From positions 15,697-79,696 of the forward strand of contig CAZAOV010000001.1 in the NCBI GenBank assembly GCA_964486995.1: DNA of 64,000 bases, written 5' to 3'. Of the stretch, positions 4,266 through 49,179 are shown one piece after another. The notes beneath the pieces were generated by a model. The model made no database searches, had not been told where the DNA came from, and worked only from the letters and a program-made list of their open reading frames with translations. This stretch comes from an uncultured Gammaproteobacteria bacterium (GTDB taxonomy: Bacteria; Patescibacteriota; Patescibacteriia; SG8-24). A program made the position numbers and the translations under genes. Position 1 is the first letter of the stretch, and each line of letters starts with the position of its first letter.

Positions 4266-5150
4266 TTAAAGCTGATACCATTCCTTTGGTATTAAATTAC
4301 CGATATCTTTTTCAACTCTATTAAACCACTTCTTCGGCGCAATGACGATCTTATCTGAATTCCTGTTCAACCACGCCCCCCACCAGGAAAAACTGCTGTT
4401 GGCGATGATGTTGTGTTTGCAGTAGGACATCAGCATCAGCTCCTCATAGTCCTTGAGCTTGCCGTCCGAGACATAAGTCACAGGGTGATCAATCTTCAAA
4501 TTCTCTTTGACCCACTCGATGTCGTCCGAAAAAATAAATAAGTGCGGATTTTCTACTTTGCTGGTTACAAATTTCATTGCTGCTTCGTAGTAAGAAAGGG
4601 AGCAAGTGCCGTGATATTCGTTCGTTCTTTTATCGCTGACGTAATCGCCGCGCCGCACGTGCAAAGATATCGCATTGCAACTTATTATTTCTTGAGTGAT
4701 TGCGCGCCCTTCAATGCTATATTCATCTTTCAATGTGAATTCTTCCCGAATTATTTCTTCGGTGTCCTTAAAATATTTTTCACTCTGCCAATAGCCGCTC
4801 AAATATATTCCACGCTCACCAATTGCCGGAGGCATACGATAACCACTTGTGCCTTCACTGACAACACTATCGTCAAACAATCCAAGCCTTCGAAGCAGAA
4901 AACCCTGTAATCGCTTACCGAATCTTGTTCGTCCCTTCCTTTGCAAACGATTAATTTCTGCCTTGGTGGCCATCTCAATTGAAATATTAAAAACCCCCAG
5001 CCCAAAATGGCGTTTAGTATTATTTTTTGAATCATCTAAGCCAGACAAATCGAGTTTCAATCGCTGACCACTAATCTCCGCCAAAAAACGTCCATATGCA
5101 TACTGAAACATTTGGTTACCTAATCCTCCGATTATTCTGGTTACTATCAT
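4266..5150 (-). CDS. GT11 alpha-1,2-fucosyltransferase
   Basis: N-terminal IIGGLGNQMFQYAYGRFLA, then HVRRGDY, then C-terminal NIIANSSFSWWGAWLN: hallmark motifs of bacterial alpha-1,2-fucosyltransferases. Confidence 0.8.
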   Translation of the reverse strand: MIVTRIIGGLGNQMFQYAYGRFLAEISGQRLKLDLSGLDDSKNNTKRHFGLGVFNISIEMATKAEINRLQRKGRTRFGKRLQGFLLRRLGLFDDSVVSEGTSGYRMPPAIGERGIYLSGYWQSEKYFKDTEEIIREEFTLKDEYSIEGRAITQEIISCNAISLHVRRGDYVSDKRTNEYHGTCSLSYYEAAMKFVTSKVENPHLFIFSDDIEWVKENLKIDHPVTYVSDGKLKDYEELMLMSYCKHNIIANSSFSWWGAWLNRNSDKIVIAPKKWFNRVEKDIGNLIPKEWYQL

Positions 5151-5176
5151 GTGATGCCACTAATAATAATCACAAA

Positions 5177-5908
5177 TTAAGTCTTGATAGCGCGAATTTG
5201 ATAACCAAAATTTAGCAACTCACTAGATGCGTCTCCTTTCTTTGAAAATCGGGCTAATAACCGTATCACCAACAACAATCCAATTTCTTCAAAAAAATTT
5301 GGCTTGCTACCACCATAATTAAATCCAACGCTCTTAATTCTTCTTACTTCTTGAGCCAGATATTCAAAATAATTTCCGTTGGGCGTAATTTCTTCAACCT
5401 TAAATCCGTTATCAGCGAGAATTTTTTCATACCAATATCTACTATACCCGTTTGCAAAGTAATATGGGGCAAAATGTGTTAGGGAACAGAAGGGTGCGGT
5501 AATAATTAACGTCCCGCCAGGTCGTAAAATTCGAGAAAATTCTTTTACCGCTTTTGCTGGTTCGGGTAAATGCTCAAACACCTCTATGCACATTATCACA
5601 TCGAACGAGCCGCCAGTTACCGGTATATCGCAGATATCTGAAATGATATCAAGCTTCGAATTGTCCCAGGTGTCAGTCTGCAAACCAACAGCGTTACCAC
5701 TGCCATCATACTTACCGAAATCCTGACTTGTATATGCTAAATGAGAACAGAACTTCTTGTATTGTAATTCTCCCGCCCCAGCATCTAAAATCCTATTCCC
5801 CGTGGATATGCGCTTTAATGACCGTTCCAACCATTCCTCCCGAGTAATCACATTTTTTGTCCCAACGTCACCGGACAAACGTTTGATAACTTTTTTTACC
5901 AAATTCAT
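5177..5908 (-). CDS. Class I SAM-dependent methyltransferase
   Basis: Motif I ILDAGAGEL, then post-I DVIMCIEVFEHLPEP. Confidence 0.7.
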   Translation of the reverse strand: MNLVKKVIKRLSGDVGTKNVITREEWLERSLKRISTGNRILDAGAGELQYKKFCSHLAYTSQDFGKYDGSGNAVGLQTDTWDNSKLDIISDICDIPVTGGSFDVIMCIEVFEHLPEPAKAVKEFSRILRPGGTLIITAPFCSLTHFAPYYFANGYSRYWYEKILADNGFKVEEITPNGNYFEYLAQEVRRIKSVGFNYGGSKPNFFEEIGLLLVIRLLARFSKKGDASSELLNFGYQIRAIKT

Positions 5909-6726
5909 ATAGACGACTTTCTAAAATAAAAACATCCACAGCCATAATGCTGTTTATTGGCATCCGCTTCAGAGGCATTAAAAACCATACCTACTTTCCC
6001 AGCATTATCGGGTATCAAATCAAATTGAACCAACTTAAAACCTGAAAAATACTCTAGAATTTGTTCAAACGAATAAATTCTATGAGCGTTAAATTGAATT
6101 CTTGGCTGACCAGAAACGGGAACTGCAATAAGCAGGGTGCCAGCTTTAGCCGTAACCCTCTTCAATTCTGCGATGGCTTTTAAATCACCGTCGGGATCTA
6201 ATTCATCGCCATATCTTCCCAATCCCACATGTTCCAAGGTGTGCATGCACGACAGTGACGCAATGCTGTCATCTTCGAATGGCAACTTCAATAAATCGGT
6301 CCTCAAACATTCCAAATTAGATAAATTCAACTTCACCGGACGATAGTCGTAAAACTTAACAGGAATGAACGCGGACAACACGGAACAAAAATACAGGGTG
6401 GACGATATATCAACGTGTTCCGCTGGTCTGTTCACCGAAAGAATCCGTGTCGCCCAAGCCGGATGATAGATGTAATGGGCATCAAACCCGGTTAGCGACG
6501 TATTATCTTTAATACAGGGATATAAATCAGCATCATGTAGCTCAAAGCGCTCATTATGTTTCGATAAGTTCCTAAATTTTTTCAGCTCATGCCTAAACAA
6601 AAAATGCTTATACAGCACCTTATTTATGGCTCTATATTTTCGATAGGCGCCCTTAAGTAGTTTGCGAACCGGCTTTGGTAATCTACCGATAACAGTGCTC
6701 ATCTTCTGGGTGTTGATTATGGTCAT
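5905..6726 (-). CDS. Hypothetical protein, possibly methyltransferase-like
   Basis: A 273-aa ORF overlapping the neighbouring gene by 4 nt. The motif LSCMHTLEHVGLGRYGDELDPDGD resembles the motif II/III region of Methyltransf_11-type enzymes, but no clear Gly-rich motif I is present. Confidence 0.35.
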   Translation of the reverse strand: MTIINTQKMSTVIGRLPKPVRKLLKGAYRKYRAINKVLYKHFLFRHELKKFRNLSKHNERFELHDADLYPCIKDNTSLTGFDAHYIYHPAWATRILSVNRPAEHVDISSTLYFCSVLSAFIPVKFYDYRPVKLNLSNLECLRTDLLKLPFEDDSIASLSCMHTLEHVGLGRYGDELDPDGDLKAIAELKRVTAKAGTLLIAVPVSGQPRIQFNAHRIYSFEQILEYFSGFKLVQFDLIPDNAGKVGMVFNASEADANKQHYGCGCFYFRKSSI

Positions 6727-6937
6727 ATTTCATATCTTGAACAGTGCATATATTACCGTAAAAACAAGGATATAGATCTGTATAAGATGGCGCTGACTAT
6801 ATTTTGCTCCGTTTAACATGATAAAGATATTAAATTAAAATCGCCACCTTAATAATACTCGGGTATAATATTATTGTATCAAACTAATTACTTTAATTCT
6901 TAGTCGTTGATGTGGTGCAAATACAATCGGAATAACT

Positions 6938-7885
6938 ATGACTACAACTAAACCGAAACGTATACTAGTCACCGGTGGAGCAGGATTTATCGGCTCTCAT
7001 CTATGTGAACGACTGGTAAATGCGGACAATGAGGTGTTATGTGTGGATAATCTATTTACCGGCAACAAATCTAATATTTACCACTTATTAGACAGTCCGC
7101 TATTTGAGTTGATACGACACGATGTCACTTTTCCTTTATACGTTGAGATAGATGAAATCTATAATCTAGCTTGTCCCGCATCACCCATTCATTATCAATA
7201 CGATCCGGTGCAGACGACCAAGACCTCAGTCCATGGGGCCATCAACATGCTGGGGTTGGCCAAAAGGACTAAGGCGAAATTCCTCCAGGCTTCGACAAGT
7301 GAGGTTTATGGCGACCCAAAAGTGCATCCGCAGACTGAAGATTATTGGGGCAATGTTAATCCAATTGGATTGCGGGCTTGTTATGATGAGGGGAAACGAT
7401 GCGCTGAAACACTATGTTTCGATTATAGGCGACAAAATGGAGTCAGAACTAAAGTGGTGCGCATCTTCAATACATACGGGCCACGGATGCGGCCAGACGA
7501 TGGGCGGGTTGTATCTAACTTTATTATGCAGGCGTTGCACAATGAGCCAATAACTGTTTATGGGGATGGAGAGCAAACCCGATCATTCTGTTTTGTTGAT
7601 GACCTAGTTGACGCGTTGATTAGAATGATGGGCACGGAAGATGAGTTCGCAGGCCCCGTAAACTTAGGTAACCCAAACGAATTCACCATCTTAGAACTAA
7701 CAAAAAAAATTATTAAACAAACTAGGTCAAACTCTGAAATCATTTTCAAACCCCTTCCTGCTGACGATCCCAAACGACGAAAACCAGATATATCATTAGC
7801 TAAGCAAAAACTTGGTTGGGAACCGACGGTTGGTTTAGATGAAGGTCTGAAAAAAACGATTGATTATTTTAGGGCGATGTCCTAA
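6938..7885 (+). CDS. uxs: UDP-glucuronate decarboxylase (UDP-xylose synthase), SDR family
   Basis: [19 protein letters not shown]...[12 protein letters not shown]...YDEGKRCAE: the typical UXS/ArnA-decarboxylase pattern, 315 aa. Confidence 0.8.
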
Positions 7886-7989
7886 GCCAACATTTGCCCT
7901 CCTGATTTGAAAAAACTAAACACGATATAAAAGCATGGGTTCTAACTCGTGGTTTTATAGTCAGAATGAATAGCGGCAGCATATCTTCA

Positions 7990-8883
7990 TTATTTTTTTT
8001 GATTCATTTTTACGCAGTGCTTCATATTTCTAAGCAAGACTGAAAAAGAATTTCGACGCAATACCTTACCCGTCCTGCCCAAACTATCATTTTTTATTTT
8101 TATTGGTTTTTTCGTAAACTTTGAGAACCATGAGCATGAATTGTTTATAAGATATGCAATGTCTTCATCCGCTATCTGATCAAGATATGGCTCGAGTATC
8201 TTAAATGCCATCTCATTATTTTGTTCGCTTTCCCGAATCCAGTATGATTCATGCCCGTATCGATGTAGGTAATATGACTTTGGCATAACAACCATTTTTG
8301 TACCTGTCGCAAGCTGTCGCAAACCAAACCCCCAAGCGTCAAGTGCTTGTGCAAATTCTGGATAACCACCAGAGCGCTCCCAACTGTTTTTGGTATATAA
8401 ATAGTTACCACTAGCAATTGGGGAAATACTGCCAGCCAGGCAGTCTGCAAATGTATGCTTTTCAGATTGAAATTTCCAGACATGTGTAACTCTGTTCGGA
8501 CTTTTATTGAAATAATATACACATTCAAATGCTGCGGCATCGGCTTCCTGGCTATTCATAAATGCAAGTAACTTCTGAACGCTCCCTGGCATTAACAAAT
8601 TATCTGAATCGAGGCAGAATATTAAATCATGTCTGGCATTGCTAACTGCCGTATTTCGCGCCGCCGCGCCGCCGCTATTTTTTTTTTGATTGATAACGCG
8701 AATGCTTGAATATTTTTTTTGCAGTCTCTGCAATAATTCAGCAGTACCATCTGTTGACCCGTCATTAACCACAACAATTTCATCGCCCATCTTTAAATTT
8801 CCGTGCACGATAGATAAAATCGAGTCTGTAATATATTTCTCGTAATTGTATGTGGGTATCACATAACTAATATTTTGCATCAT
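7990..8883 (-). CDS. Family 2 glycosyltransferase (GT2)
   Basis: SYVIPTYNYEKYITDSILSIV...IVVVNDGSTDGT...LDSDN. Confidence 0.8.
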   Translation of the reverse strand: MMQNISYVIPTYNYEKYITDSILSIVHGNLKMGDEIVVVNDGSTDGTAELLQRLQKKYSSIRVINQKKNSGGAAARNTAVSNARHDLIFCLDSDNLLMPGSVQKLLAFMNSQEADAAAFECVYYFNKSPNRVTHVWKFQSEKHTFADCLAGSISPIASGNYLYTKNSWERSGGYPEFAQALDAWGFGLRQLATGTKMVVMPKSYYLHRYGHESYWIRESEQNNEMAFKILEPYLDQIADEDIAYLINNSCSWFSKFTKKPIKIKNDSLGRTGKVLRRNSFSVLLRNMKHCVKMNQKK

Positions 8884-9017
8884 ATAATGTATTTAATTTT
8901 TTAATTTAGCGTAGCAAATCCATGTGTAGTGTTCAGCCTCATCAATAAATGGATTGGGTATCTCAGCTTCCGCCGGTTCAAGCAACGGCTCCGGAGGGTG
9001 AGATTGGTTTATTTACT

Positions 9018-9908
9018 CTAAGACTGAGTTTCTAAGGTTTTCAAAACAAATGGGCACCATTTCTGGTATGCCAAATATTTATTATATACAGCCGTGGATT
9101 TTTCCCCCATTTCAACTAAGCGCTCAGGTGGTTGACCATCAATAATGTCCTCAATTTCATTCACGTCATCGGCATAGAAACTTATTTCATTCCAAGGAAT
9201 CCATTGCTTAAATGGACGCGTATCAACATCACCTATTAGGAATGGCACCACACCAAGCTGCATGCTTTCTATTAATCTAAATGAGCCACCACCATACCCG
9301 CGCGGACATAATGAGATATATGACTGCAATAATTTTTTATCAAAAGATTTTTTTCCCATGTCGCCATTATACAAATACACATCCTTGCGTTGTTCAAGCT
9401 GAGCGTGCATTTCACTCCGAATAGTGTGTGTATGATACCGCCCTAAGAAACAAGCCTTATATTTTTTTCTTGGAAATAATAAAAATGGTCTACGGGCTTC
9501 CTGCAACAATAAAGGGGCGTCAAATCCATTCTCTGATTTGCGTGATCCCAAAAATTGACGTGCTAACCCTATGTTGGATAGCGGACCGTCCGCATACTGA
9601 CATATCGTAAATGTGCGATTATCGTCTATCATGATTCGGTCAAGTTCTTCTTGCAGTTCAGGACGACCCCGTTTTGCATAATCATGCTCCACATGCCATC
9701 TAGTCCAATATATGGGTAAATAGTGCCAGTCTGCCTTACTAGGATTGTCTACCAACAACTCGGGATTATTTTTTAAATAGAGAAGAAAATCTTGTTCAAT
9801 GCCAAAATCATTATTGTGTGCAGGATAAACGAAACGTTGCACTTCGGGTTGAAATTTTTTTTTGCAGGGCAAAATGTGAATTTTCATACTATTAGTTAAC
9901 CCCGTCAT
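9018..9908 (-). CDS. Exostosin-like glycosyltransferase (GT47 family)
   Basis: The C-terminal motif YISLCPRGYGGGSFRLIESMQLGVVPFLIGD matches the exostosin/GT47 signature (F/YCLxPRG...RxxEaL.G.IPV). Confidence 0.55.
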   Translation of the reverse strand: MTGLTNSMKIHILPCKKKFQPEVQRFVYPAHNNDFGIEQDFLLYLKNNPELLVDNPSKADWHYLPIYWTRWHVEHDYAKRGRPELQEELDRIMIDDNRTFTICQYADGPLSNIGLARQFLGSRKSENGFDAPLLLQEARRPFLLFPRKKYKACFLGRYHTHTIRSEMHAQLEQRKDVYLYNGDMGKKSFDKKLLQSYISLCPRGYGGGSFRLIESMQLGVVPFLIGDVDTRPFKQWIPWNEISFYADDVNEIEDIIDGQPPERLVEMGEKSTAVYNKYLAYQKWCPFVLKTLETQS

Positions 9909-9938
9909 TTAACGCATATAAATTTTCATCCAGAAGTA

Positions 9939-10649
9939 CTATTTAATAAGATCAGCAAAAATATTCCCGTCCTCCGTCCGACTATTTGGACTTGGGCGAT
10001 ACTCACACGGTATTGCAGACGAGATGCTACTATTTCGGCTATTAAAAAGAATTTTGCTATATCCAACCGCTCGTGCCATCTCTTCGAGTATTGCTGGACT
10101 CAAGACGTTAAGATGGCCATGCCTATCCCACTCCTCAACAAACACACCATTAAAACCCTTATCAAATTCCGAATGACTTTTCATTGAAACTAAAATGTTA
10201 GGTGTATTGACCCGATGTACGGCCCCCGGTTTCATAATTCGCAGCATCTCGGATAAAAAAAGGAATTGACTGCGTTGAGTTAGGTGTTCAATAAAATCCT
10301 CATGAAAAATAACATCTACACAATTGTCAGGAAATGGCAACGGCTCCTTCGTAAGATTAATCGAATAAAAATCATTTTTCTCCGTTCCCCTAATCTGCGG
10401 CGGATAAAATTCATCGGTATAATATTGTAAATAATTCTCAAACGGACAATACTTCAAATCAATATTTATCCACCCCTTTAGGACACGGGGTCCACATCCG
10501 ATATGTAGTTTGATATTTCTTTCATTTGCGAAAATCTGATTTCGTAACTTGTTGATTCCTGTCCAGTGTCGTTTTGCCGCCATTTTTTGATCTGCATTTC
10601 TAACATCATGATAGATTCTCCTAATTTTTTTTAATGCATAAATTACCAT
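9939..10649 (-). CDS. Class I SAM-dependent methyltransferase
   Basis: KLHIGCGPRVLKGWINIDL (motif I), then RIMKPGAVHRVNTPN. Confidence 0.6.
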   Translation of the reverse strand: MVIYALKKIRRIYHDVRNADQKMAAKRHWTGINKLRNQIFANERNIKLHIGCGPRVLKGWINIDLKYCPFENYLQYYTDEFYPPQIRGTEKNDFYSINLTKEPLPFPDNCVDVIFHEDFIEHLTQRSQFLFLSEMLRIMKPGAVHRVNTPNILVSMKSHSEFDKGFNGVFVEEWDRHGHLNVLSPAILEEMARAVGYSKILFNSRNSSISSAIPCEYRPSPNSRTEDGNIFADLIK

Positions 10650-11467
10650 ATTTTTTCATCAATTTCTTTCCGAATTGCCAGTATATTTTGATATTTAAAA
10701 ATCTCATAAAAGGTCTGATACGACCCTAGTGGTAACAACCCTTCGGGCAATATCCGATATAAATTATATGAGAATAAAATATCAAAATAATCCTTCATAA
10801 ACACACGCGCGAAAACATTAAACTCATTAAATTCAAACTGAATTACTTTAATAGCCCCACTATTAAGCATCAATTGCGCTCCTTTGAGTACATCTAACTC
10901 ATGCCCCTCAACATCGATTTTCATAAAATCAATGTGAGTAATGCCGTTCTCCAAACAATAATGATCAGTTGTGTCGATAGTAAATGGAATTTCTTCAATA
11001 ACGTCATTTACTTCAAACAGTTCGAGCATTCCTTTATGAACGGATCCGAGTGATGAGTGTTCCGGTTTAGAAAAACAATATAAAATTTTACTCGAATCTT
11101 TTGTTGACCCTAAGCCACACCGTATTGGGCATATCCTATTCTGAAATTTTTCTGCCGCTTTTATTAAAAAACTATGCGGCTGTCTATTTGGTTCAAATGA
11201 AATAATTCTGGCAGTTGGAAATATTTCAGCTAACATTACAGAGTAGTTACCTACATTCGCACCAACATCAAACATGATCGGCTTAACCGATGAGACATAC
11301 CGAGAGACCAATCGTTTAAGCACATATTTTTCCCCCGTGGTGTTTTCGTCACCGAAATTCAGCACACCAATTTTTTGATATGCACTAGTCAGTATCTGAT
11401 TTGGCGTTTGATTATGATTTTGGGAAATAAATAATCTTCTGTAAATTTTATTTAAATAAGCTTTCAT
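10643..11467 (-). CDS. FkbM-family methyltransferase
   Basis: MFDVGANVGNYSVMLAE...FEPN...IDFMKIDVEGHELDVLKGA: the FkbM/Methyltransf_21 pattern. Confidence 0.75.
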   Translation of the reverse strand: MKAYLNKIYRRLFISQNHNQTPNQILTSAYQKIGVLNFGDENTTGEKYVLKRLVSRYVSSVKPIMFDVGANVGNYSVMLAEIFPTARIISFEPNRQPHSFLIKAAEKFQNRICPIRCGLGSTKDSSKILYCFSKPEHSSLGSVHKGMLELFEVNDVIEEIPFTIDTTDHYCLENGITHIDFMKIDVEGHELDVLKGAQLMLNSGAIKVIQFEFNEFNVFARVFMKDYFDILFSYNLYRILPEGLLPLGSYQTFYEIFKYQNILAIRKEIDEKIW

Positions 11468-11469
11468 AG

Positions 11470-12714
11470 TTATTTTTTGCTAGTCAAATAGTCTAAAACT
11501 GTCGCTGTCCTCCCAAGTCTTTTCCAGCGCGAGTCAATTCTAAAATTTGCAGAATCAACAATTGAAAAAGATACTTTCTGCTTGTGATCAATATATTCAA
11601 TGAAAGGCTTTTGAAAAGAAATGTCGCAATGATATTTACCGATATTAAATAGCTGTGCAGGTACGGCAATTCTGGTAATGTATCTTCCTTTTTTGTAATT
11701 TCTTAAACGAAGTGTTTTGTCCGTTTCAGAAGATAACAAAAAAAGATCATCTCCTTGATCATAAAATAAAGCACATATACAGGCTCGCTGCACTTCTTCT
11801 TGAACATGATACTCAATATCAATATAAAAACCTTCATCTACATTAATCTCGCTGGCTATTACATTATTATTGTTGAAAAACTTTATACTCGTAATGCTTG
11901 CGGCCTTAGATTCAGATATCTTGTACTCGTGTACAGCCTGAATATTTTTATTATCGCTTTTATTATATTGTGCAATGATACTTAAGGTGTCGCCATATGC
12001 AATTATCTCCCCGTTCTTGAGTAATATACATTTTTGACATATTTTTTTTATGGCGTTCATGTTATGACTCACAAAAATAACTGTCCGTCCATCTTCACTA
12101 ACTACAGTATTCATCTTATTTAAACACTTCTTCTGAAATTCAGCATCTCCTACCGATAATACTTCATCAACAATCAAAACGTCTGGTTCAAGATGAGCTG
12201 CGACAGAAAATGCGAGACGAACGTACATACCGCTTGAATATCGCTTGACTGGAGTGTCCAAAAATTTTTCTACGCCAGAAAACTCAACGATACTGTCAAA
12301 TTTCTGCTGAATTTCTTTTTTTGTCATGCCTAAAATCGCACCATTCAGATATATATTTTCCCTGCCCGTGAGCTCTGGATGGAAACCTGTGCCCACCTCC
12401 AGCAAAGAAGCGACTTTGCCACGAATAATAATTTCTCCTTCTGTGGGTGGCGTTATTTTCGACAATATTTTCAGCAAAGTTGATTTGCCCGCTCCATTAG
12501 CGCCGATGATGCCGACTGTCTCCCCCCGCGCAATATCCACGGAAATATTTCGCAAGGACCAAAATTCTTCTCGGGTCATCTTTTCCTTGATTGTCTTGAA
12601 TGGGGATGTAAAAAATTGCGTCATCAGGTCGCGCAGAGACAAATACTTCTCCCGTTGGTGATAAATATTGTATTTCTTGCCAACGTCTCTGATTTCTATG
12701 ATCGGTTCGTTCAT
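11470..12714 (-). CDS. wzt: Polysaccharide ABC exporter ATP-binding protein (Wzt/TagH-like) with a C-terminal carbohydrate-binding extension
   Basis: Walker A GIIGANGAGKSTLLKIL, signature LSVGDAEFQKKC, Walker B LIVDEVLSVGD, plus about 160 aa of extra C-terminal sequence, as in Wzt proteins. Confidence 0.85.
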   Translation of the reverse strand: MNEPIIEIRDVGKKYNIYHQREKYLSLRDLMTQFFTSPFKTIKEKMTREEFWSLRNISVDIARGETVGIIGANGAGKSTLLKILSKITPPTEGEIIIRGKVASLLEVGTGFHPELTGRENIYLNGAILGMTKKEIQQKFDSIVEFSGVEKFLDTPVKRYSSGMYVRLAFSVAAHLEPDVLIVDEVLSVGDAEFQKKCLNKMNTVVSEDGRTVIFVSHNMNAIKKICQKCILLKNGEIIAYGDTLSIIAQYNKSDNKNIQAVHEYKISESKAASITSIKFFNNNNVIASEINVDEGFYIDIEYHVQEEVQRACICALFYDQGDDLFLLSSETDKTLRLRNYKKGRYITRIAVPAQLFNIGKYHCDISFQKPFIEYIDHKQKVSFSIVDSANFRIDSRWKRLGRTATVLDYLTSKK

Positions 12715-20651: not shown

Positions 20652-20848
20652 ATATTCGATATTTTCATCCTGAGCGTAGCGTGAGAATCCCGATGTTTTA
20701 TCGTGGGCTTTCTTCTTGCTGCCACGGGATTGCGGCGCTGCACTCGCAATGACGGATTATGTGAGCGAGCTTGCGGAAACAGGGTTATTGGTTGGCTGGT
20801 GCGGTGATGTGGATTCCTGCCTTCGCAGGAATGACATGGTGGGGGGGG

Positions 20849-20858: not shown

Positions 20859-21003
20859 GAGGGCGGAAACACACCTACCGAATCGGGCAGGGGCAAGCCC
20901 TGCGGCTATCATCATGGTAATCGCAATTTGATAATAACACATCCCGCATTGACTGACCGCCGCCAAGCTGATAACTTCATCAAGCAGCAAAACGGAGGAA
21001 AAC

Positions 21004-22503: not shown

Positions 22504-22606
22504 GTGTTCTGATTTAGCAGTGGCTGTGGATGTTTTATTTGATGGCGGTAGCTGCGGGGTTTGGCGGCGTGCCTCTAGGGGCAGGGGCAAGCCCTGCGGC
22601 TACGCA

Positions 22607-23590: not shown

Positions 23591-23863
23591 GGGGGTAGGT
23601 TAATATATGTTTTAAGTAATTACTAGATTATCGACTGATGATGTCCCGGCACCACCGCGCTCGCATAAAAACTGTCAGACTTATTTTAGGAGAGGGGGCG
23701 ATGGGGCGTTAATAAAGCGGTAGCGACAGAGCTTGTCTCTGCCCATGAAGCACTCGCCTGTCTGAACGGGCAGAGGCGAGCTTTGCCGCCTCACAAATCT
23801 AGATTGACAATTAAGATTGGAAATACTAACCTAAACTGCCGCTTATTTTCAAGGAGAGCCGAG

Positions 23864-24376: not shown

Positions 24377-25306
24377 ATGTCTGTACAATGCATGAGCCTG
24401 GTGATCGGCACGCGCAAGTGTAACGCGCGGTGTCCGTTCTGCGTTTCGCAACAGACCGGTTTTGATAAAATCAGTCGCGGTCGCGAACGCAATATCAATT
24501 TCATCAATCTGGAAGAGGCGTGTGTGATGTGCGGGACTGCAAGTCCGCCCACGCTGCTCATGACCGGAAAGGGCGAGCCCACGCTGTACCCGGACGAAAT
24601 TACGCGATATCTGGAGTGGTTTCGGGAGAAGCCGTTTGCGCCCAAAGAGTTGCAGACCAACGCGCTGGCTATTGGCCGGCTGGCCGAGACTGGTCAAAGC
24701 GGCGTCGACGGGCTGGACGAGGAGACTCTTCGGCACTGGCGGTCGCTGCGGCTCGGTGTGGTGGCACTTTCTACGGTTGGGATTCATGACGCGGCCAACG
24801 CGGCGGTGTATCACCCTGATTATCCGTCGCTCGTGGATACCATCGCGTACCTGCGCGGGTTCGGGTTTACAGTTCGGTTGTGTGTGATGATGATGCGCGG
24901 CGAGGGCTGTGTGGCTGATATCGACGGTTTGGAGGAAGTGGTCGAGTTCTGCCGCGCGCATGACGTGGGTCAGCTCACCGCCCGGCCGATTACCGCGGCC
25001 GACAACGGTGGCGAGTCACGAGCCGCACGGTTCGTACGCGAACACGGTGTGTCGCCCGATGCGCCGCGGGAGCTGTACGAAGCGGTCGAAGCGCGCGCCC
25101 AGGCGCTGTATCCCCTGGCGCACGGCGCGATGGTGTTCGACTGGAACGGTCAAAATGTTTGCTTGTCGAACTGCCTGACCTCGGACATGCAGTCCGCCCC
25201 CGGCGACCACCGCTCGCTGATTTTCTTCAGCAACGGCATGATCACCACCAGCTGGGACCACGCCGAGGCCGCTGCACTGCTGCAGGGCGATCCTAATTAC
25301 GGCTAA
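24377..25306 (+). CDS. Radical SAM enzyme of unassigned subfamily
   Basis: RBS ggaggagg. CxxxCxxC at residues 15 to 22 (GTRKCNARCPFCVSQ), then a GGE-like TGKGEPTLY. 309 aa. No SPASM-type C-terminal Cys cluster recognised. Confidence 0.7.
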   Translation: MSVQCMSLVIGTRKCNARCPFCVSQQTGFDKISRGRERNINFINLEEACVMCGTASPPTLLMTGKGEPTLYPDEITRYLEWFREKPFAPKELQTNALAIGRLAETGQSGVDGLDEETLRHWRSLRLGVVALSTVGIHDAANAAVYHPDYPSLVDTIAYLRGFGFTVRLCVMMMRGEGCVADIDGLEEVVEFCRAHDVGQLTARPITAADNGGESRAARFVREHGVSPDAPRELYEAVEARAQALYPLAHGAMVFDWNGQNVCLSNCLTSDMQSAPGDHRSLIFFSNGMITTSWDHAEAAALLQGDPNYG

Positions 25307-25312
25307 TTCTTT

Positions 25313-25344
25313 AATCGTGGCTAATTTCAGCCACGATTTTTTTA
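25313..25344 (+). terminator. Rho-independent terminator
   Basis: atcgtggctaatttcagccacgat hairpin plus ttttttt, directly after the radical SAM stop. Confidence 0.55.
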
Positions 25345-25382
25345 TCCACAAAATAGGTGCCTGGCACCTATTTTGTGGATAA
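25342..25382. repeat. REP-like palindrome, copy 1
   Basis: ttatccacaaaataggtgcc|tggcacctattttgtggataa, a perfect 41-bp palindrome. Related copies at 27004 and 27653. Confidence 0.85.
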
Positions 25383-25428
25383 TTTAATATGACAGGTCGT
25401 TGGTAATGCACATTATAAAGAGGGTGGT

Positions 25429-26580
25429 ATGCAAATAATTTACGCAGCGCGGGACGCGCCAGAAACAATTACCAAGTCCATCTTTCTCGCCGGGCCGAGC
25501 CCACGAAAAGACGGGCAATACAACTGGCGACCGGATGCAATCAAAATCCTGGAGCAGCTGGGTTTTGATGGCACCGTGTTCATTCCGCTACCCGAAGACG
25601 GCGGCTGGCCACATTCGTACGACGAACAGGTCAACTGGGAAACGCGTCATCTGAATATGGCCGATGTGGTGGTGTTCTGGGTGCCGCGCGACCTTACAGA
25701 TCTGCCGGCCTTCACCACGAACGTGGAGTTCGGCATGTGGTACGACACCGGCAAAGCGGTGCTCGGGTACCCGCCGGACGCCAAAAAGATGAAATACCTC
25801 GACCATCACGCGCGTCGTGTCGGCACTCCGGTATGCGATACGCTCGAAATCACGCTACAGACTGCGGTGGACATGCTCGGGGATGGCGCTGCCCGCACAG
25901 ATGGCGAGCGTTTCGTGCCGCTGCACATCTGGCGGACTCCTCAGTTCCAGCAGTGGTACGCCGCGCAGACCACGGCTGGCAACCGACTCGACGGTGCGGA
26001 AGTGGTTTGGTCGTTTCGGCTGCAGCAAACCGGCAACGTTTTATTCTGGGCACTGCACGTGGACGTTCATATCGCCATTGAAAGTCGCAACAAGACTATC
26101 GAAATCGTTTTGTCGCGACCTGACCTGTCGGTCGTGGTGGCATACTACGACGACGAGGACACCGGCGACACCAAGGTGGTGTTGGTGCGCGAGTTCCGTT
26201 CGCCCGCTTCAACTAAGGATGGTTTCGTGCTGGAACTGCCGGGCGGTTCTAGCAAGAATCCAGAAAAAACACCGGCCGAGATAGCCATCGACGAATTCCA
26301 CGAAGAAACCGGCCTGAAGCTCGACCCAAAATATCTGACACCAGTCGAATCGCGCCAGCTTGCCGCTACCTTGTCGGCGCACCGCGCTCACGTGTTCACC
26401 TACCAACTGGACGACGATGAGTACCAGGCGCTACTCGAACAGACCAACCAAACACACGGTGAGTCGGACGATACCGAACTGACTTACCTAGAAATCCATT
26501 CGCTCGACGACATCCTCTACGGAGATGAAATCGAGCTGGACTGGTCCAATCTAGGAATGCTTTATCTGGCGATCGGCTAA
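25429..26580 (+). CDS. Fusion protein: N-terminal nucleoside 2-deoxyribosyltransferase/DNPH1-like (nucleotide N-glycosidase fold) domain plus C-terminal NUDIX hydrolase domain
   Basis: N-terminus: SIFLAGPSPRKDG...ADVVVFWVP...NVEFGMWYDTGKAVLGY (compare DNPH1/Rcl VYFCGSIRGG...ADVVVAEV...GVGYELGRAVALGK). C-terminus: Nudix box ELPGGSSKNPEKTPAEIAIDEFHEETGLKL. Confidence 0.6.
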   Translation: MQIIYAARDAPETITKSIFLAGPSPRKDGQYNWRPDAIKILEQLGFDGTVFIPLPEDGGWPHSYDEQVNWETRHLNMADVVVFWVPRDLTDLPAFTTNVEFGMWYDTGKAVLGYPPDAKKMKYLDHHARRVGTPVCDTLEITLQTAVDMLGDGAARTDGERFVPLHIWRTPQFQQWYAAQTTAGNRLDGAEVVWSFRLQQTGNVLFWALHVDVHIAIESRNKTIEIVLSRPDLSVVVAYYDDEDTGDTKVVLVREFRSPASTKDGFVLELPGGSSKNPEKTPAEIAIDEFHEETGLKLDPKYLTPVESRQLAATLSAHRAHVFTYQLDDDEYQALLEQTNQTHGESDDTELTYLEIHSLDDILYGDEIELDWSNLGMLYLAIG

Positions 26581-26593
26581 GATAATATAAGAA

Positions 26594-26622
26594 GCCGCCT
26601 CTTTAACGAGGCGGTCTTATTA
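26594..26622 (+). terminator. Rho-independent terminator
   Basis: gccgcctctttaacgaggcggt hairpin followed by a T-rich tail. Confidence 0.5.
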
Positions 26623-26675
26623 TTGACAAATCAATATAATCGACATAAGGTGCACGGCTCAGCAAGGAGGAACAC

Positions 26676-26984
26676 ATGGACAGAGAAGGCTGGGGCTTGA
26701 TTGGTTTGGTTCTTGGCACACTTTTCATCATCGCGGTCATCGCGTTCAGCTGTCTGCGTGGATTTGCGGTGGAGCCGCAAACCGCCATCGAAGCCGCCGA
26801 GACCATAGGATTCACCGATGTCACGGTGACCGACGAGAACTACATGTGTATGGCGTGGCAGGGCTGCGACCGCAACGACGCCGTTGGATTCGAAATGACT
26901 GCCACCAACGCCCAAGGTGAGCGCGTCGATATCATGGTCTGCTGCGGCTGGCCGTTCAAGGGGTGCACCATCCGCACCAACTAA
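26676..26984 (+). CDS. Small membrane-anchored hypothetical protein
   Basis: RBS aaggagga. N-terminal TM helix (GLIGLVLGTLFIIAVIAF). 102 aa. Confidence 0.45.
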   Translation: MDREGWGLIGLVLGTLFIIAVIAFSCLRGFAVEPQTAIEAAETIGFTDVTVTDENYMCMAWQGCDRNDAVGFEMTATNAQGERVDIMVCCGWPFKGCTIRTN

Positions 26985-26998
26985 CTCCCGAGAGCTGC

Positions 26999-27616
26999 TT
27001 ACTTTATCCCCAGAATAGGTGCCTGGCACCTATTCTGGGGATAATTTTTTTCCTTCAAAATTTGGCGGCCAATTTCTATATGTTCAATATAATTTTGCAT
27101 CGCTTCATCCTCATTGTTTCCAAAATGACTCAATATCCAAAACCGATCGAGAAAACCTGGTTCCGGATCAAGTCCAACAATCTCTCTATATGACCCCCAA
27201 GGCCAATCAACCGAATGCTCAACAAAACCGTCTTTCACCGGATTCAGGGCGATATACCGACACACCTCTAAAAAATATCTTTCACTGTCTATGATTTTGC
27301 TATCGTATCTCCGCTGATACACCCTGCCCAAAAAGCCGTATTTCTCATTAAAATATTTTGCATAATCGCCGTTAAGCTTTTGCATACCAATGGACAAATT
27401 GCCTTTAGGCACGTAAAGACCCAAATGATTGTGGTTTCTCATTTGGCAATGCGAAAAACTTTTCCAGTCACAGCCTTCGCACACATCAGCTAGTATCGTA
27501 TTGAAAACGATTCTATCCTGATTATCTAAATAAATATCCCCCTTGCGGTTGCCACGGGTAGTTACATGCACCAACATGCCCTCAAATTGTATTCGCGGTT
27601 TTCTAGGCATCGCCAT
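26999..27616 (-). mobile_element. IS200/IS605-type Y1 (HUH) transposase, probably a REP-associated tyrosine transposase (RAYT)
   Basis: PRKPRIQFEGMLVHVTTRGNRKGDIY...HCQMRNHNHLGLY...RYFLEVCRYIALNPVKDGFV has the Y1_Tnp pattern. The gene is flanked by REP-like palindromes at 27004 and 27653. Its last 14 codons are read through the palindrome. Confidence 0.6.
27004..27044. repeat. REP-like palindrome, copy 2
   Basis: ttatccccagaataggtgcc|tggcacctattctggggataa. Overlaps the 3' end of the RAYT ORF. Confidence 0.85.
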
Positions 27617-27652
27617 TCCTTTACCCCACAGCGATGAAACCGTAAATAGTAC

Positions 27653-27692
27653 TTATCCACAAATTGGTGCCTGGCACCTATTCTGGGGATAA
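27653..27692. repeat. REP-like palindrome, copy 3 (imperfect)
   Basis: ttatccacaaattggtgcc|tggcacctattctggggataa, 37 bp upstream of the RAYT start. Confidence 0.8.
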
Positions 27693-27739
27693 AATAATTA
27701 AAAAAGACCGGAGCTGTCCGATCTTTTTACTTCTTCTAA

Positions 27740-40043: not shown

Positions 40044-40261
40044 AGAGTTTCTTTATGTATTGTAGATATTTTACCTGATACAAGAAAAAGCCGCATCTTT
40101 TGAGCGGAAAAACTGTCAGACTTATTTTAAGGCGGCCAATGTTAAACACAAGTCTGACAGTTATTAGAGCAAGAGCGTTCATCGGAATGCCGCTGAAAAA
40201 CCGAACAGCCCACCAACCAAAAAACTCCAAAATAATAACCCCTGATAGAGGGGTTATCTGG

Positions 40262-46211: not shown

Positions 46212-48200
46212 TTGTCTATGCAAACCAATACCATGCGTCACTCATATCAAATCATTGCGGCTGCAGCAGTAGTCGTGCTTATGTTCTTCTGGATGCCGAA
46301 CGCATATGCGCAGGTACCGGAATTTACCGATGAGCCATTTGACGCAACTGGCCTGTGCGTCGATGAGGGCTATGAAAGATACGAGACGCCCATCGAGTGC
46401 GAAGAGCGGTGCGATAATTGTGTCTTGGACGAAGACCAATGCTGGAGCTGTCAGAGTCAGCCCGAACCGGAAACAACGCCTGGTCTCTGGAAACGGTTCA
46501 CCAACTGGGTCGGCAGTTTTTTCAGCAGGGTCGTACAGTTCATTACCGGCAACGCACCGACCGAAGAACCGGATCCGAACCGTTCTGAACTAAACATTGC
46601 CTGGCGCACGGCTTCTGCGGCAGGCAAGAGCGTGCTCGGCTATCATCGCGGCGAGGGTCGCGGCAATGAAGAAGCCATAAACCAGCAAATCAAAGATGCC
46701 CTTGCTAATGCCGACTCCATACCGGACTTGCTGAAACTGCGCACTATTTTCATGATCTATTGTCAGGACAAGCACAACCAAAATTACAAATCCCAAGCCG
46801 CCTGCATGAATGATTTTATGGATGAATTTCGTAAGCGCGGCGATGTCCTAAAGGAACGGCTGTTGGCACAAATCGATTCCAGTGACGGCAGTGCCAAAAC
46901 GTACAAGAGGATTGTTGGCCTGCGCTCAATCCTAATGGCCGGCACGAACGCGAGCGGCGAGGGGTATTGGTTTTCGACCGACAATATCAAGAAGGTCATG
47001 GAAGCGTTGAAGGGCAAGATGAAGGAGTGGCTACAGGCAGCGCTAGTGCACAACGCTTCGCTCGAGAACATCCATACTTGGTATTACTTTGCCCAAGCTT
47101 ACACTAAGGCTGTCGTAAAGGAAGGCGACTCACCCGGCTCCGGCCTCATGGAAGGGTCTAATCCTTCGTTGTTGGTGCGGTATCGAGCGCGACGACTGGC
47201 CCTGCAAGAAATGATTAAGATCGACATCTGCAATCCCGACCCGGAGAAGCTCAAGAAGTTCCAGGAGCTGTTGAGCCAGCCGCCCGGCTGCAGAAAAATT
47301 CTCGGCAGTACGGTTGCCTGCGCTGATATAATGTCCGGCAAGCTTGAAGCGGCGTACGCTTATCTCTACGACATGGACGAAGGAGACGAAGCCAACGACA
47401 TGCCGCAGAACAAGGCGTCGGAACCGATTAAATGCGATAAGCAAAGCACAACGACCACCGCTGATACTTCCGACGATGAGCCCTTAGCCGTTCCAACCCC
47501 GCCGACCGAGGAGAGCGGTGATGATGTCGGCGCTTACGAGAGAGAGACACAAGCAACTGACTCGGACGGTAACCCGACACAAGGTGACCCACCGCCGGTC
47601 GGCGCCGACACGGAGGAAGGCACCGAACATACCGGGGCGGATTCAGGTGCTGCCTCCGGCAATCCCGAACCCGATTCAACCGAACCGCCCGGCGACACGG
47701 AATCCGACTCGACCCCCGCTTCCGGCGATTCCACCGATTCGACAGATGAACCAACCGAACCAAACGAGACCGATGACCCGACAGTCGAGCCGAACGGTAC
47801 GGGCACGCCTGACCCCTGCGAACTGCCTGAAAACCTTGATTCGCCCGAATGCATTACGGCCGGCGAACCGAACCCGGAGGAACCAACCGCGACTCCAGTC
47901 GTTCCGCCAGACCCAGAAGAACCCTACTCCATGTGCGATGTCGTCATAATCTCTGACCCGATCGTCGGCTGGGACTTCTATACCCAAGACTGCAATGCCG
48001 CCCGAGAAGACGTGATATTCGCCTTCACTTCATGTGGCTGGCAACCCCCTCTGGTCGTGGCCGACGATTCCGGCCCGGAAATCATGTGCTACGAAACGGC
48101 CGGCGGATTCATAGATTATCAATCTATAATTCCGTGCCATCCGATCCCCTGGCCAGACGAGCCCGTCGTTCAGTGTGTCGAGGAACACCTGATGATGTAA
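46212..48200 (+). CDS. Secreted Cys-rich protein with a long acidic Pro/Thr/Asp/Glu-rich low-complexity segment
   Basis: Signal peptide (AAVVVLMFFWMPNAYA); Cys clusters at both ends; a DSTEP/DSTD-type low-complexity stretch at 47500..47900. Confidence 0.5.
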   Translation: MSMQTNTMRHSYQIIAAAAVVVLMFFWMPNAYAQVPEFTDEPFDATGLCVDEGYERYETPIECEERCDNCVLDEDQCWSCQSQPEPETTPGLWKRFTNWVGSFFSRVVQFITGNAPTEEPDPNRSELNIAWRTASAAGKSVLGYHRGEGRGNEEAINQQIKDALANADSIPDLLKLRTIFMIYCQDKHNQNYKSQAACMNDFMDEFRKRGDVLKERLLAQIDSSDGSAKTYKRIVGLRSILMAGTNASGEGYWFSTDNIKKVMEALKGKMKEWLQAALVHNASLENIHTWYYFAQAYTKAVVKEGDSPGSGLMEGSNPSLLVRYRARRLALQEMIKIDICNPDPEKLKKFQELLSQPPGCRKILGSTVACADIMSGKLEAAYAYLYDMDEGDEANDMPQNKASEPIKCDKQSTTTTADTSDDEPLAVPTPPTEESGDDVGAYERETQATDSDGNPTQGDPPPVGADTEEGTEHTGADSGAASGNPEPDSTEPPGDTESDSTPASGDSTDSTDEPTEPNETDDPTVEPNGTGTPDPCELPENLDSPECITAGEPNPEEPTATPVVPPDPEEPYSMCDVVIISDPIVGWDFYTQDCNAAREDVIFAFTSCGWQPPLVVADDSGPEIMCYETAGGFIDYQSIIPCHPIPWPDEPVVQCVEEHLMM

Positions 48201-48459: not shown

Positions 48460-49179
48460 TTATTGCGCCAGATAGGACTTTAGCGTATAAATCCAGTCTT
48501 CCTCGCCCTGCGGATCGTCTATCTTTTTCATCAGCAGCCATTCCAGATAACTGCGGTCCTCTTTAAGCACGTCTTCCAGCAGCTTTCCGGCATGTTTGCC
48601 GAAATTGATACGCCGCATCAGCGACGGTCGCTTGGAAATCTCAATCATTTCCTTGTATATATCCGCATCCTTGCCGTACTCGATCCTCATCTTTTCCTCG
48701 AGACGACCAAACAGGCCTTCCAACACATCCACGTCTCCAGCCGCGTCGTGGGCGACCGCCTTGATATCCAACCCCAGATAATATCGCAGGTATTGAAGTG
48801 AATAGCGCGGTATCTTGGCTTCCATATCCAAGTGCCGCACCAGCTTTAAGGTACATATGACGTTCTTGGTCACTATACCCTCGCGCCGCAGCATGTCCGC
48901 GTCGAACGCGGCGTTATGCGCCACTAGCACCGCATCGTCTCTTTCCAACAGCTCACGCAAATTATTAAACATCTCGGAATCCTGAAACGCCGGTTTGTCG
49001 TCCACTATTTTTTGGGTGATGTGGTGAACTGCCATCGCATCAATCGTAATCGGCAACGGTGGCTTGAACAGCTCACACTTCATCTCACCCTCCGTTTTGT
49101 ATGCAACTTGGCACAGCCGATCCTGCGGCTTCACGCCAGTGGTTTCTGTATCTAGAAAAACTAATTTCATAATTATCAA
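48460..49179 (-). CDS. DEDDh 3'-5' exonuclease (DnaQ/RNase T-like) with a C-terminal extension
   Basis: ExoI VFLDTETTG, ExoII VAHNAAFDADML, ExoIII AVAHDAAGDVDVL. Confidence 0.75.
   Translation of the reverse strand: MIIMKLVFLDTETTGVKPQDRLCQVAYKTEGEMKCELFKPPLPITIDAMAVHHITQKIVDDKPAFQDSEMFNNLRELLERDDAVLVAHNAAFDADMLRREGIVTKNVICTLKLVRHLDMEAKIPRYSLQYLRYYLGLDIKAVAHDAAGDVDVLEGLFGRLEEKMRIEYGKDADIYKEMIEISKRPSLMRRINFGKHAGKLLEDVLKEDRSYLEWLLMKKIDDPQGEEDWIYTLKSYLAQ

Follow-up and report, generated by a model that had tools for sequence, protein, structure and literature searches.

A probable TIRYT-type element flanked by self-complementary inverted repeats in a Patescibacteria genome

Y1 transposase genes that are flanked by terminal inverted repeats (TIRs), and not by REPs, have been described as TIRYTs and their loci as TIRtrons (Di Nocera 2013, PMC3733652). 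The same group corresponds to TnpA-Y1 subclass 2.1 of Quentin 2018 (PMC6006769) and to RAYT group 1 of Bertels 2017 (PMC5581495). In the parts of these papers that deal with the class, self-complementary TIRs, repeats overlapping the 3' end of the gene and modest repeat families are all known (PMC3733652; PMC6006769 for subclass 2.1; PMC5581495 for group 1). The same sections report the motif GGGGWSAS in the TIR for the majority of published TIRYT cases but not for all, and an HTH tail for all 20 published TIRYTs that were placed in subclass 2.1. Subgroup 2.1.2 is described there as heterogeneous (PMC6006769), and group 1 RAYTs as mostly low-copy and vertically inherited (PMC5581495). A literature search returned no experimental substrate, activity or function for TIRYTs or RAYT group 1 in the portions of the sources that treat them.

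The locus reported here lies in a 64-kb stretch of DNA, referred to as the window, from a metagenome-assembled genome of the Patescibacteria (CPR), a host group that is not met in the class descriptions of PMC3733652, PMC6006769 and PMC5581495. The element is probably a TIRtron, in which a TIRYT-type gene (TnpA-Y1 subclass 2.1, RAYT group 1) is located between its cognate inverted repeats. This arrangement has already been described, and the window contains a new, divergent example of it in a Patescibacteria genome. The gene and its repeats are as follows:

26999..27616, minus strand: probable TIRYT-type Y1/HUH gene, 205 aa (Pfam Y1_Tnp)
25342-25382, no strand: palindrome copy 1, perfect (20+1+20), 41 nt; a solo copy 1.6 kb past the 3' side of the gene
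27004-27044, no strand: palindrome copy 2, perfect (20+1+20), 41 nt; the downstream (3') repeat of the gene
27653-27692, no strand: palindrome copy 3, imperfect, 40 nt; the upstream (5') repeat of the gene
27666..27693, minus strand: upstream terminal inverted repeat arm, 28 nt
27003..27030, plus strand: downstream terminal inverted repeat arm, 28 nt, partner of 27666-27693

Three near-identical palindromes starting at 25342, 27004 and 27653 had been noticed in the original prediction and were found again as units of 40 or 41 nt, all inside 2.35 kb. Their 13-nt core GGTGCCTGGCACC occurs at only these three sites in the 64-kb window, where 0.06 are expected, and at none in the other 61.6 kb. 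The core pattern shared by the window palindromes is GGTGCCWGGCACC, i.e. GGTGCC-W-GGCACC, and 0.00 chance occurrences are expected for the degenerate 41-mer. The arm variants proposed for the copies are real. The four differences between copies 1 and 2 form two pairs in which each change is compensated (arm positions 7/14 and 10/11), which leaves both copies perfectly palindromic. Copy 3 is indeed a hybrid, as its right, gene-distal arm is exactly the copy 2 arm and its left, gene-proximal arm is similar to that of copy 1, from which it departs by one substitution and the loss of 1 nt. When folded as single-stranded DNA, copies 1 and 2 reach -20 to -21 kcal/mol (copy 2, -21) at a z-score of about -10, and copy 3 reaches -10.8 kcal/mol on the plus strand and -8.4 kcal/mol on the minus strand. 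The feet of the palindromes read TTATCC/GGATAA within A/T-rich flanks, and a GT[AG]G foot is absent from both strands of all three copies. The pattern GGTGCCTGGCACCTATNNNNNGGATAA had no match in three public collections (genomes, metagenomes and viruses), from which the source genome is evidently missing, and a literature search with the core sequences retrieved irrelevant papers only.

The gene is flanked by terminal inverted repeats, which consist of the outer arms of copies 2 and 3: the reverse complement of 27666-27693 matches 27003-27030 at 27 of 28 positions, and the central base alone differs. The proposal that a Y1/HUH-family gene is flanked by its own palindrome in inverted orientation, and that one more copy stands alone, is correct. 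Copy 2 overlaps the 3' end of the gene, as had been stated, and covers its last 15 codons. The upstream copy had been assigned to a 37-bp leader and has to be moved, as copy 3 ends 36 nt ahead of the first ATG, or 42 nt ahead of the ATG at 27610, and thus lies upstream of the spacer and not inside it. This second ATG is the likelier start (203 aa; NCBI call P0001) and is preceded by AAGGA at a distance of 6 nt. The peptide YPQNRCQAPIL is common to the open reading frames 25016..25468 (minus strand) and 26963..27193 (plus strand) and to the tail of the transposase. It is simply the palindrome in translation. The antisense reading frames are spurious, as had been stated.

A profile check confirmed that the gene bracketed by the last two copies encodes a Y1 protein. 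Pfam Y1_Tnp, the sole Pfam match, covers residues 14-123 with 37.2 bits (cut-off 23). The best and only NCBIfam transposase match was REP_Tyr_transpos (NF047646) with 53.2 bits, which is under its cut-off of 80, and none of the NCBIfam IS200 models matched the protein at E<=1. The HuH motif is H62-N63-H64 and the catalytic tyrosine is Y121 (YIALNP); H62, H64 and Y121 are invariant across alignments with relatives, and all other catalytic and core residues besides the middle position of HuH are intact. At this position a non-hydrophobic Asn creates an unusual H-N-H, which was seen in none of the 80 + 149 relatives described below, two of which carry Glu there. To judge from the sequence, the Asn may leave the enzyme impaired. 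The AlphaFold model of the protein has a pLDDT of 91.2, with low confidence for the palindrome-encoded tail (about residues 190-205). The best PDB fold match found by Foldseek was 4ER8, the E. coli TnpA_REP (TMt 0.74, 23% identity, E 1.3e-8), followed by ISDra2, IS200 and IS608 TnpA (E about 1e-5 for ISDra2/IS608), and 4ER8 was also the only match in a sequence-level PDB search. Alignments and model show the features of the HUH/Y1 superfamily, metal-binding histidines and a catalytic Tyr on a TnpA fold. A C-terminal HTH is absent from the protein, which ends at residue 205. The gene is single-copy in the window (one tblastn match to the catalytic domain), and the protein forms a cluster of one member on one contig, a singleton at 50% identity whose nearest relative reaches at most 46%.

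Related loci were searched with seven seed sequences, which yielded 80 GTDB loci (given L numbers here), and the 149 closest representatives were added for the analysis of motifs. The relatives share 33-46% identity with the window protein (E down to 1e-46) and come from many phyla. Both sets carry the motifs NHYH (NH[YF]H or NHVH), FQ, Y[IV]xLNP and W.WSSY. Because the window protein has its own variants of these motifs (NHNH, YQ, YIALNP and WGSY), its placement in subclass 2.1 is based on homology at 33-46% identity rather than on a tree that includes the published reference sequences. Most of the 80 loci share the layout, and flanking inverted repeats of 14-36 nt were present in about 50 of the roughly 70 that could be analysed. 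Their upstream arm ends 15-60 nt ahead of the start and their downstream arm lies across the stop codon, as in the window. The usual repeat type is GGGGTCAG, and palindromic 13-nt cores are more often found with short relatives that lack the HTH, the window protein included; a length of at most 230 aa applies to 25 of the 149 closest representatives. In L004 the identical core GGTGCCTGGCACC flanks the homolog on either side, and in L039 it lies upstream. The closest homolog (P0002, L081) is flanked by GGTGCCTGTCACC, while GGGGTCAGACCCC is the core in L058, L077 and L083 and GCGACCTGGTCGC that in L086; these cores differ from the window core by paired changes. The 13-nt core also accompanies homologs of the Actinomycetota and the Bacillaceae, and both the core and the geometry of the flanks recur across unrelated phyla. 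Additional copies of the repeat, at distances of up to a few kb, were observed in about 13 of 41 loci, for example in L056 at +1657 and in L071 at +1200, and the genes between such copies are mutually unrelated.

Several features are in common with the TIRYT class (subclass 2.1, RAYT group 1): the relatives carry its motif set, the terminal inverted repeats keep the distances that are usual for it and the 3' one runs into the end of the reading frame, a few extra repeats lie nearby, and the gene has a low copy number and a patchy taxonomic distribution. The self-complementarity of the repeats corresponds to a variant noted in 2013 in the description of the class (PMC3733652). The locus deviates from the published TIRYTs in several points. 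In gene orientation its core reads GGTGCCAG, a variant common to L004, L039 and L081, which does not fit the consensus GGGGWSAS and agrees with it at 6/8 positions. With 205 aa the protein is short, it has no Bac_DnaA_C, HTH_23 or HTH_28 tail, and its motifs differ from the TIRYT set in having H-N-H for HuH, YQ for FQ and GS for SS.

By analogy to E. coli TnpA_REP and IS608 TnpA, the protein is probably a hairpin-recognising nuclease of single-stranded DNA with cognate repeats. Where DNA is single-stranded, as on the lagging-strand template, the palindromes would be extruded as hairpins, and the protein would bind the core hairpin. The DNA beside the hairpin would be cut and rejoined via a 5'-phosphotyrosine intermediate. 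Such cutting and rejoining could copy or move the palindrome, giving rise to the solo copy 1, and perhaps also the gene with its ends. Binding and cleavage by members of subclass 2.1 are proposed by analogy only, and proliferation of the palindrome is not demonstrated by three copies that are all local. A more speculative proposal, to which we give a rather low probability, is that the short, HTH-less branch of TIRYTs, to which the window protein belongs, reads a 13-nt hairpin that resembles a REP and has a stem of 6 bp around a central W, the stems co-varying between lineages (GGTGCC/GGCACC, GGGGTC/GACCCC, GCGACC/GGTCGC and GGTGAC/GTCACC), and that the palindromes here may also mark the borders of a 2.35-kb unit by which a nucleoside 2-deoxyribosyltransferase-NUDIX (NDT-NUDIX) gene was imported or captured. 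If true, there would be a hairpin 'code' in a subclass that was reported without REP-like structures.

The surroundings of the gene contain the following features:

25313..25338, plus strand: intrinsic-terminator-like hairpin with T-run of the radical SAM gene (terminator scan), conserved in the relative L087
25429..26580, plus strand: nucleoside 2-deoxyribosyltransferase-like + NUDIX fusion gene (Pfam), between copies 1 and 2
26676..26984, plus strand: gene for a predicted membrane protein of 102 aa, between copies 1 and 2; GC3 0.75
27701..27728, minus strand: terminator-like hairpin after the 69-aa ORF/CobW operon (terminator scan), 8 nt from copy 3

The neighbours of the gene are thus NDT-NUDIX, the small membrane protein, the 69-aa ORF and CobW (Pfam). 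In L087 and L092/L093 the radical SAM and 69-aa ORF/CobW genes are adjacent with nothing of the segment 25342-27692 between them, and this whole segment is absent from the related Patescibacteria. The hairpins at 25313..25338 and 27701..27728 are the left and right limits of the lineage-specific segment. Copy 1 begins 3 nt past the radical SAM hairpin, in accordance with its predicted position directly after a terminator; the mRNA-stabilising or attenuating role that had been proposed for it is hypothetical. In nucleotide comparisons with L087 and L088 the alignment is confined to the terminator at the radical SAM end, and the intergenic DNA is too diverged for an empty site to be defined. The TIRYT gene is a compositional outlier, with a GC3 of 0.43 vs 0.63-0.75 for its neighbours (radical SAM 0.73, CobW 0.66). 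NDT-NUDIX is missing from the syntenic loci of the relatives and has a host-like GC3 of 0.68; it is a candidate part of the element, and a metagenome scan retrieved distant or partial relatives of it only. The 102-aa membrane protein had no family match in Pfam or NCBIfam and no counterpart in the relatives, and a 116-aa ORF in L092 is not homologous to it. PADLOC and PHROGs gave no useful match for the neighbouring genes, and Rfam at the gathering threshold detected only 4 tRNAs in the whole window. In the terminator scan the positions of the palindromes are extragenic and terminator-adjacent, copies 1 and 3 each adjoining a separate terminator. Copy 1 itself scores as terminator-like, and so does copy 2, which is followed by T7 on the plus strand, for the convergent gene 26676..26984. 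It is very likely that copy 2 with its T7 also terminates this plus-strand gene as a side effect.

The locus had been called a 'classic REP/RAYT' arrangement. A canonical REPtron would combine a strict-sense RAYT gene (groups 2/3) with palindromes of a high-copy REP/REPIN family dispersed over the genome. It would share the general layout of a Y1 gene between inverted palindromes, REP_Tyr_transpos and TnpA_REP 4ER8 are the best NCBIfam and fold matches, and extragenic positions next to terminators are typical of REPs. However, with 53 bits the protein stays under the threshold of 80, a GT[AG]G foot is missing from the palindromes, and the other 61.6 kb of the window hold no copy, whereas several would be predicted there at REP densities like those of E. 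coli. The motifs of the relatives (NHYH, FQ, Y[IV]xLNP, WSSY) correspond to subclass 2.1 and not to 2.2 or 2.5, according to the subclass descriptions in PMC6006769. With motif, model score and GTAG foot all contrary, the canonical REP reading was rejected as very improbable. What the locus shares with the E. coli REPtron (4ER8; PMC3333891, PMC3479197) is the modelled fold with its predicted HUH and Y...NP chemistry, and the arrangement of one gene framed by inverted palindromes that lie outside genes and next to terminators; it differs in lacking the GTAG guide tetranucleotide and a high-copy dispersed family in the window, in having perfect hairpins with 20-bp arms where REPs are bulged, and in belonging to subclass 2.1 and not 2.2. 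An autonomous insertion sequence of the IS200/IS605 type, in which the palindromes are the subterminal hairpins of the left and right ends, would account for the Y1_Tnp domain, the hairpins at both ends, the GC below that of the host and the relatives without the segment. As in IS608 and ISDra2 TnpA, the catalytic core is of the HUH/Y1 type and both gene ends carry sequences able to form hairpins, but the Tyr motif is Y...NP (class 2) and not Y...Q (class 1.1 in the classification given in PMC6006769), and the protein is longer (205 aa vs about 150 aa). There is no IS200 match in NCBIfam at E<=1, no tnpB and no set of multiple identical copies, the gene being single-copy in the window and the protein a singleton at 50% identity (nearest relative <=46%) on one contig only. 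The tests of motif and model score went against this reading, which was rejected as having next to no probability.

Two further readings concern the history and the state of the element. The segment 25342-27692 (palindrome 1, NDT-NUDIX, membrane protein, palindrome 2, TIRYT and palindrome 3) might have arrived, or might move, as one palindrome-bounded composite unit with cargo. All three genes are missing from the site in L087 and L092/L093, and copies 1 and 3 abut both of the terminators that bound it. The cargo genes, however, have a host-like GC3 (0.68 and 0.75; compare 0.73 for radical SAM and 0.66 for CobW) vs 0.43 for the TIRYT gene, which argues for separate histories. In addition, no empty site can be delimited in the strongly diverged intergenic DNA of the relatives, the genes between extra repeats at other loci are mutually unrelated, and no second instance of the 2.35-kb unit was present in the public collections, which lack the source genome, or in the metagenome scan. 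A composite element is quite unlikely. It is also unlikely, if somewhat less so, that the locus is an inert relic or purely regulatory, with an inactive H-N-H enzyme and with palindromes that serve as terminators, mRNA stabilisers or a dyad-symmetric operator and not as transposition substrates. The Asn in the middle of HuH is unique among 229 relatives, copy 2 with T7 fits an intrinsic terminator and copy 1 is terminator-like, copy 3 is located where the promoter or operator of the gene would be, and low copy number with vertical inheritance prevails in group 1 RAYTs as described in PMC5581495. Against this, the remaining catalytic and core residues are intact in a protein that is modelled with confidence, and two relatives have Glu at the same position, showing that polar residues occur there. 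Copies 1 and 3 would be redundant as terminators, since separate terminators adjoin both, and the compensated differences between copies 1 and 2 together with the family-wide repeats around the gene point to a relationship between protein and repeat.

The reading of the locus as a TIRtron takes the finding out of the 'REP system' category and into the class of TIRYTs or RAYT group 1, on which far less work has been done. For annotation purposes, it is an ordinary divergent mobile-element-like gene in a Patescibacteria MAG, accompanied by spurious palindrome-derived open reading frames that should be ignored. The element is compact, with a core-only protein of 203-205 aa, perfect 41-nt palindromes and a natural solo copy. 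Together with the recurring 13-nt core, it provides a concrete substrate prediction for the first biochemical test of the class.

Three palindromes were found where the original prediction had placed them, two of them at the ends of a Y1 transposase gene and one standing alone:

25342-25382, copy 1, a perfect 20+1+20 palindrome
26999..27616 (-), transposase ORF of 205 aa
27004-27044, copy 2, a perfect 20+1+20 palindrome
27653-27692, copy 3, 40 nt, with a right arm exactly that of copy 2 and a copy 1-like left arm carrying a 1-nt deletion and one substitution

Copy 3 is, as had been proposed, a hybrid of both arm variants. For the degenerate 41-mer 0.00 occurrences were expected, which places the palindromes far beyond chance, and the 13-nt core GGTGCCTGGCACC was detected at these three sites and nowhere else in the 64 kb (0.06 expected). 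Four positions distinguish copy 1 from copy 2, and they make up two fully compensated pairs (A.T to C.G and A.T to G.C); the palindromic structure itself is therefore maintained, by selection or by a copying mechanism. Folding as single-stranded DNA yielded about -20 to -21 kcal/mol for copies 1 and 2 (z about -10) and -8 to -11 kcal/mol for copy 3, and for both strands the hairpin potential of the palindromes is strong. Together with the T7 that follows it, copy 2 looks like a textbook intrinsic terminator of the convergent gene 26676..26984. The peptide YPQNRCQAPIL was indeed common to antisense ORFs and is the palindrome translated in frame.

The second ATG of the transposase gene (27610) is the likelier start, with AAGGA located 6 nt upstream, and gives the 203 aa of the NCBI protein P0001. 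Its assignment as a Y1 transposase was borne out by the HMM check, in which Pfam Y1_Tnp matched at 37 bits, and the sole meaningful NCBIfam match was REP_Tyr_transpos (53 bits versus a cut-off of 80). Motif alignment identified H62, H64 and Y121 (YIALNP). In the AlphaFold model (pLDDT 91.2), confidence is high everywhere but in the tail that begins at about residue 190 and is mostly palindrome-encoded. The closest solved structure was 4ER8, E. coli TnpA_REP bound to a REP hairpin (E 1.3e-8, TMt 0.74), which was also the sole match of a sequence-level PDB search; the ISDra2, IS200 and IS608 transposases were the next structural matches. Judged by sequence and model, the HUH/Tyr enzyme looks intact. 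The middle residue of the HuH motif is Asn (His-Asn-His, codons H62-N63-H64 at window 27427-27435), which was found in none of 229 relatives (80 GTDB relatives and 149 closest representatives); these mostly carry Tyr or Phe, and two carry Glu. The Asn63 codon AAT is one transversion from the consensus TAT, and this residue may render the window enzyme weakened or dead.

In an exhaustive HMMER scan, the number of representative clusters was 23,645 at E<=1e-3 and 9,456 at E<=1e-10. At the 50% identity level the window protein stands alone, its nearest relative being 46% identical or less. The closest relatives, compared as 80 GTDB loci from many phyla and 149 representatives, carry the motif set NH[YF]H / FQ / Y[IV]xLNP / W.WSSY. 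The same set is assigned to TnpA-Y1 subclass 2.1 by Quentin et al., who treat this subclass as equivalent to Bertels' RAYT group 1 and to Di Nocera's TIRYT (PMC6006769). TIRtrons are described by Di Nocera et al. as RAYT-like genes flanked by terminal inverted repeats (TIRs) and not by GTAG REPs; GGGGWSAS is present in many TIRs, self-complementarity and overlap with the 3' end of the ORF each in some, and certain species have TIR families of moderate abundance (PMC3733652). For RAYT group 1, Bertels et al. report about 12 occurrences of the flanking 16-mers per replicon and near-identical duplicates in 6.3% of members (PMC5581495).

The window element is best filed with this TIRtron / TIRYT class (subclass 2.1, RAYT group 1), as the TIR flanks, self-complementary repeats and 3' overlap of the published descriptions fit it. 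As a member of this class it is unusual: the protein has no HTH tail, the core is GGTGCCAG as opposed to GGGGWSAS, and the host genome belongs to the CPR. The classic REP/RAYT arrangement proposed originally was not supported: a canonical REPtron was rejected on the sub-cut-off REP_Tyr_transpos score, the missing GTAG foot and the lack of dispersal in the window. An IS200/IS605 element was rejected on Y...NP in place of Y...Q, no match to the NCBIfam IS200 models, no tnpB and a transposase gene that is single-copy within the window.

Repeats common to the upstream and downstream flanks were sought in about 70 related loci with enough flank, and about 50 of them contained an inverted repeat of 14-36 nt beginning (G)GGGTCAG. 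Their upstream arm stops 15-60 nt short of the start codon, and the stop codon falls inside the downstream arm. The window follows this geometry, with 28-nt arms (27666-27693 and 27003-27030) that match at 27/28 positions and differ at the centre alone. The linkage of gene and repeat is family-wide. Since extra copies were present within a few kb at about 13/41 loci (for example L056 at +1657, L071 at +1200, four at L060), the solo copy 1 has precedent. The homolog in an Actinomycetota MAG (L004) has the core GGTGCCTGGCACC on either side and that in Rossellomorea (L039) has it upstream, while P0002/L081, the closest homolog at 45% identity, is flanked by three copies of GGTGCCTGTCACCATCTTGCGTT. 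GGGGTCAGACCCC (L058, L077, L083-85), GCGACCTGGTCGC (L086) or GGTAGCGTCTACC (L078) flanks other short homologs; the 13-mers of the window and the short homologs have a common design of a 6-bp stem and a central base, with paired changes between them. In a small, hand-checked sample restricted to loci with an exactly shared 13-mer, palindromic cores were commoner with short (<265 aa) proteins (5/10) than with long, HTH-bearing ones (3/42, of which at least two look spurious), a trend and not a proven rule. The TIRYT homolog with GGGGTCAGACCCC flanks at L083-L085 (P0005) lies between LigD ligase and LigD primase-polymerase genes, and this homolog was detected on 14 metagenomic contigs.

The host GlyRS is 83-88% identical to proteins of Patescibacteria MAGs and 74% to that of Candidatus Uhrbacteria. 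In related loci the radical SAM gene converges directly on the 69-aa ORF/CobW genes, at a distance of 362 bp in L087 (CobW 73% identical) and 743 bp in L092/L093 (64%), and neither the TIRYT gene, the NDT-NUDIX fusion nor the 102-aa membrane protein is found between them. In the window, copy 1 through copy 3 fill the space between two terminators (25313-25338 and 27701-27728) almost exactly; the 25342-27692 segment was shown to be lineage-specific. GC3 is 0.43 for the TIRYT gene and 0.68 and 0.75 for the two enclosed genes, like their neighbours (0.63-0.75). We therefore think that NDT-NUDIX and the membrane gene have a separate origin from the transposase and its palindromes; one composite unit of all these parts is less likely. 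The radical SAM protein (24377-25306) has weak viperin-like matches (NCBIfam E 0.0099, PADLOC pVip E 0.0027) and its gene adjoins the rare nucleoside-deoxyribosyltransferase-like and NUDIX fusion (25429-26580), for which the metagenome scan gave no close relative and which the syntenic loci of relatives lack. In a related genome (L088), a terminator-like hairpin AAAAATGCCTGGCACTTTTGGGGTCAAAAGTGCCAGGCATTTTT directly follows the 69-aa ORF at about 5770-5815, a region syntenic with window positions of about 27650-27735; its arms contain the window core TGCCTGGCAC, its centre is GGGGTCA and the contig ends 175 bp beyond.

Further repeats were observed in the window. A second palindromic family, AAAACYGTCAGACTTRTTTTAAGG, is intergenic at 23668-23691, 40109-40163 and 54105-54167, its members being a single copy, a hairpin with a 13-bp stem and a hairpin with 30-nt arms. 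The family's centre, GTCAGAC, is similar to the canonical TIRYT motif GGGGTCAGAC; no second Y1 gene was found in the window to accompany it, and the family occurred in 0/107 loci compared. The small intergenic hairpin GCAGGGGCAAGCCCTGC is exact at 20887-20903 and 22581-22597, with variants at about 23768 and 63818-63834(-), and its core CAGGGGCAAGCCCTG has three exact copies in 10.8 kb of the related Patescibacteria genome L087 (59-73, 2400-2414, 10726-10740); its copies are more scattered, in a more REP-like manner, than those of the 41-nt palindrome. A 60-nt repeat (20779-20838 and 57536-57595, 82% identity; partial copy 49015-49044) contains the hairpin ATTCCTGCCTTCGCAGGAAT, adjoins a tRNA cluster in one copy and matched no Rfam family at the gathering threshold. 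The ORFs 49251-53528(-) (1425 aa) and 46212-48200(+) (662 aa) had no Pfam match at E<=1e-5. GC content is low at 5000-12000 (0.34-0.39 versus 0.49 for the window), inside a glycosyltransferase/sulfotransferase/PAPS-synthesis gene cluster, and high in the 20-27 kb region (0.54-0.60).

The biochemistry of E. coli TnpA_REP and of the IS608 and ISDra2 TnpA proteins is established (4ER8 and related entries). By analogy with these enzymes, the window protein would bind the core hairpin in single-stranded DNA, and would cleave and rejoin nearby via a phosphotyrosine link. The palindrome would thereby be duplicated or moved, and perhaps also the gene along with its ends. What the finding mainly offers is a precise and testable prediction of the substrate, for a class without biochemistry in the literature surveyed.
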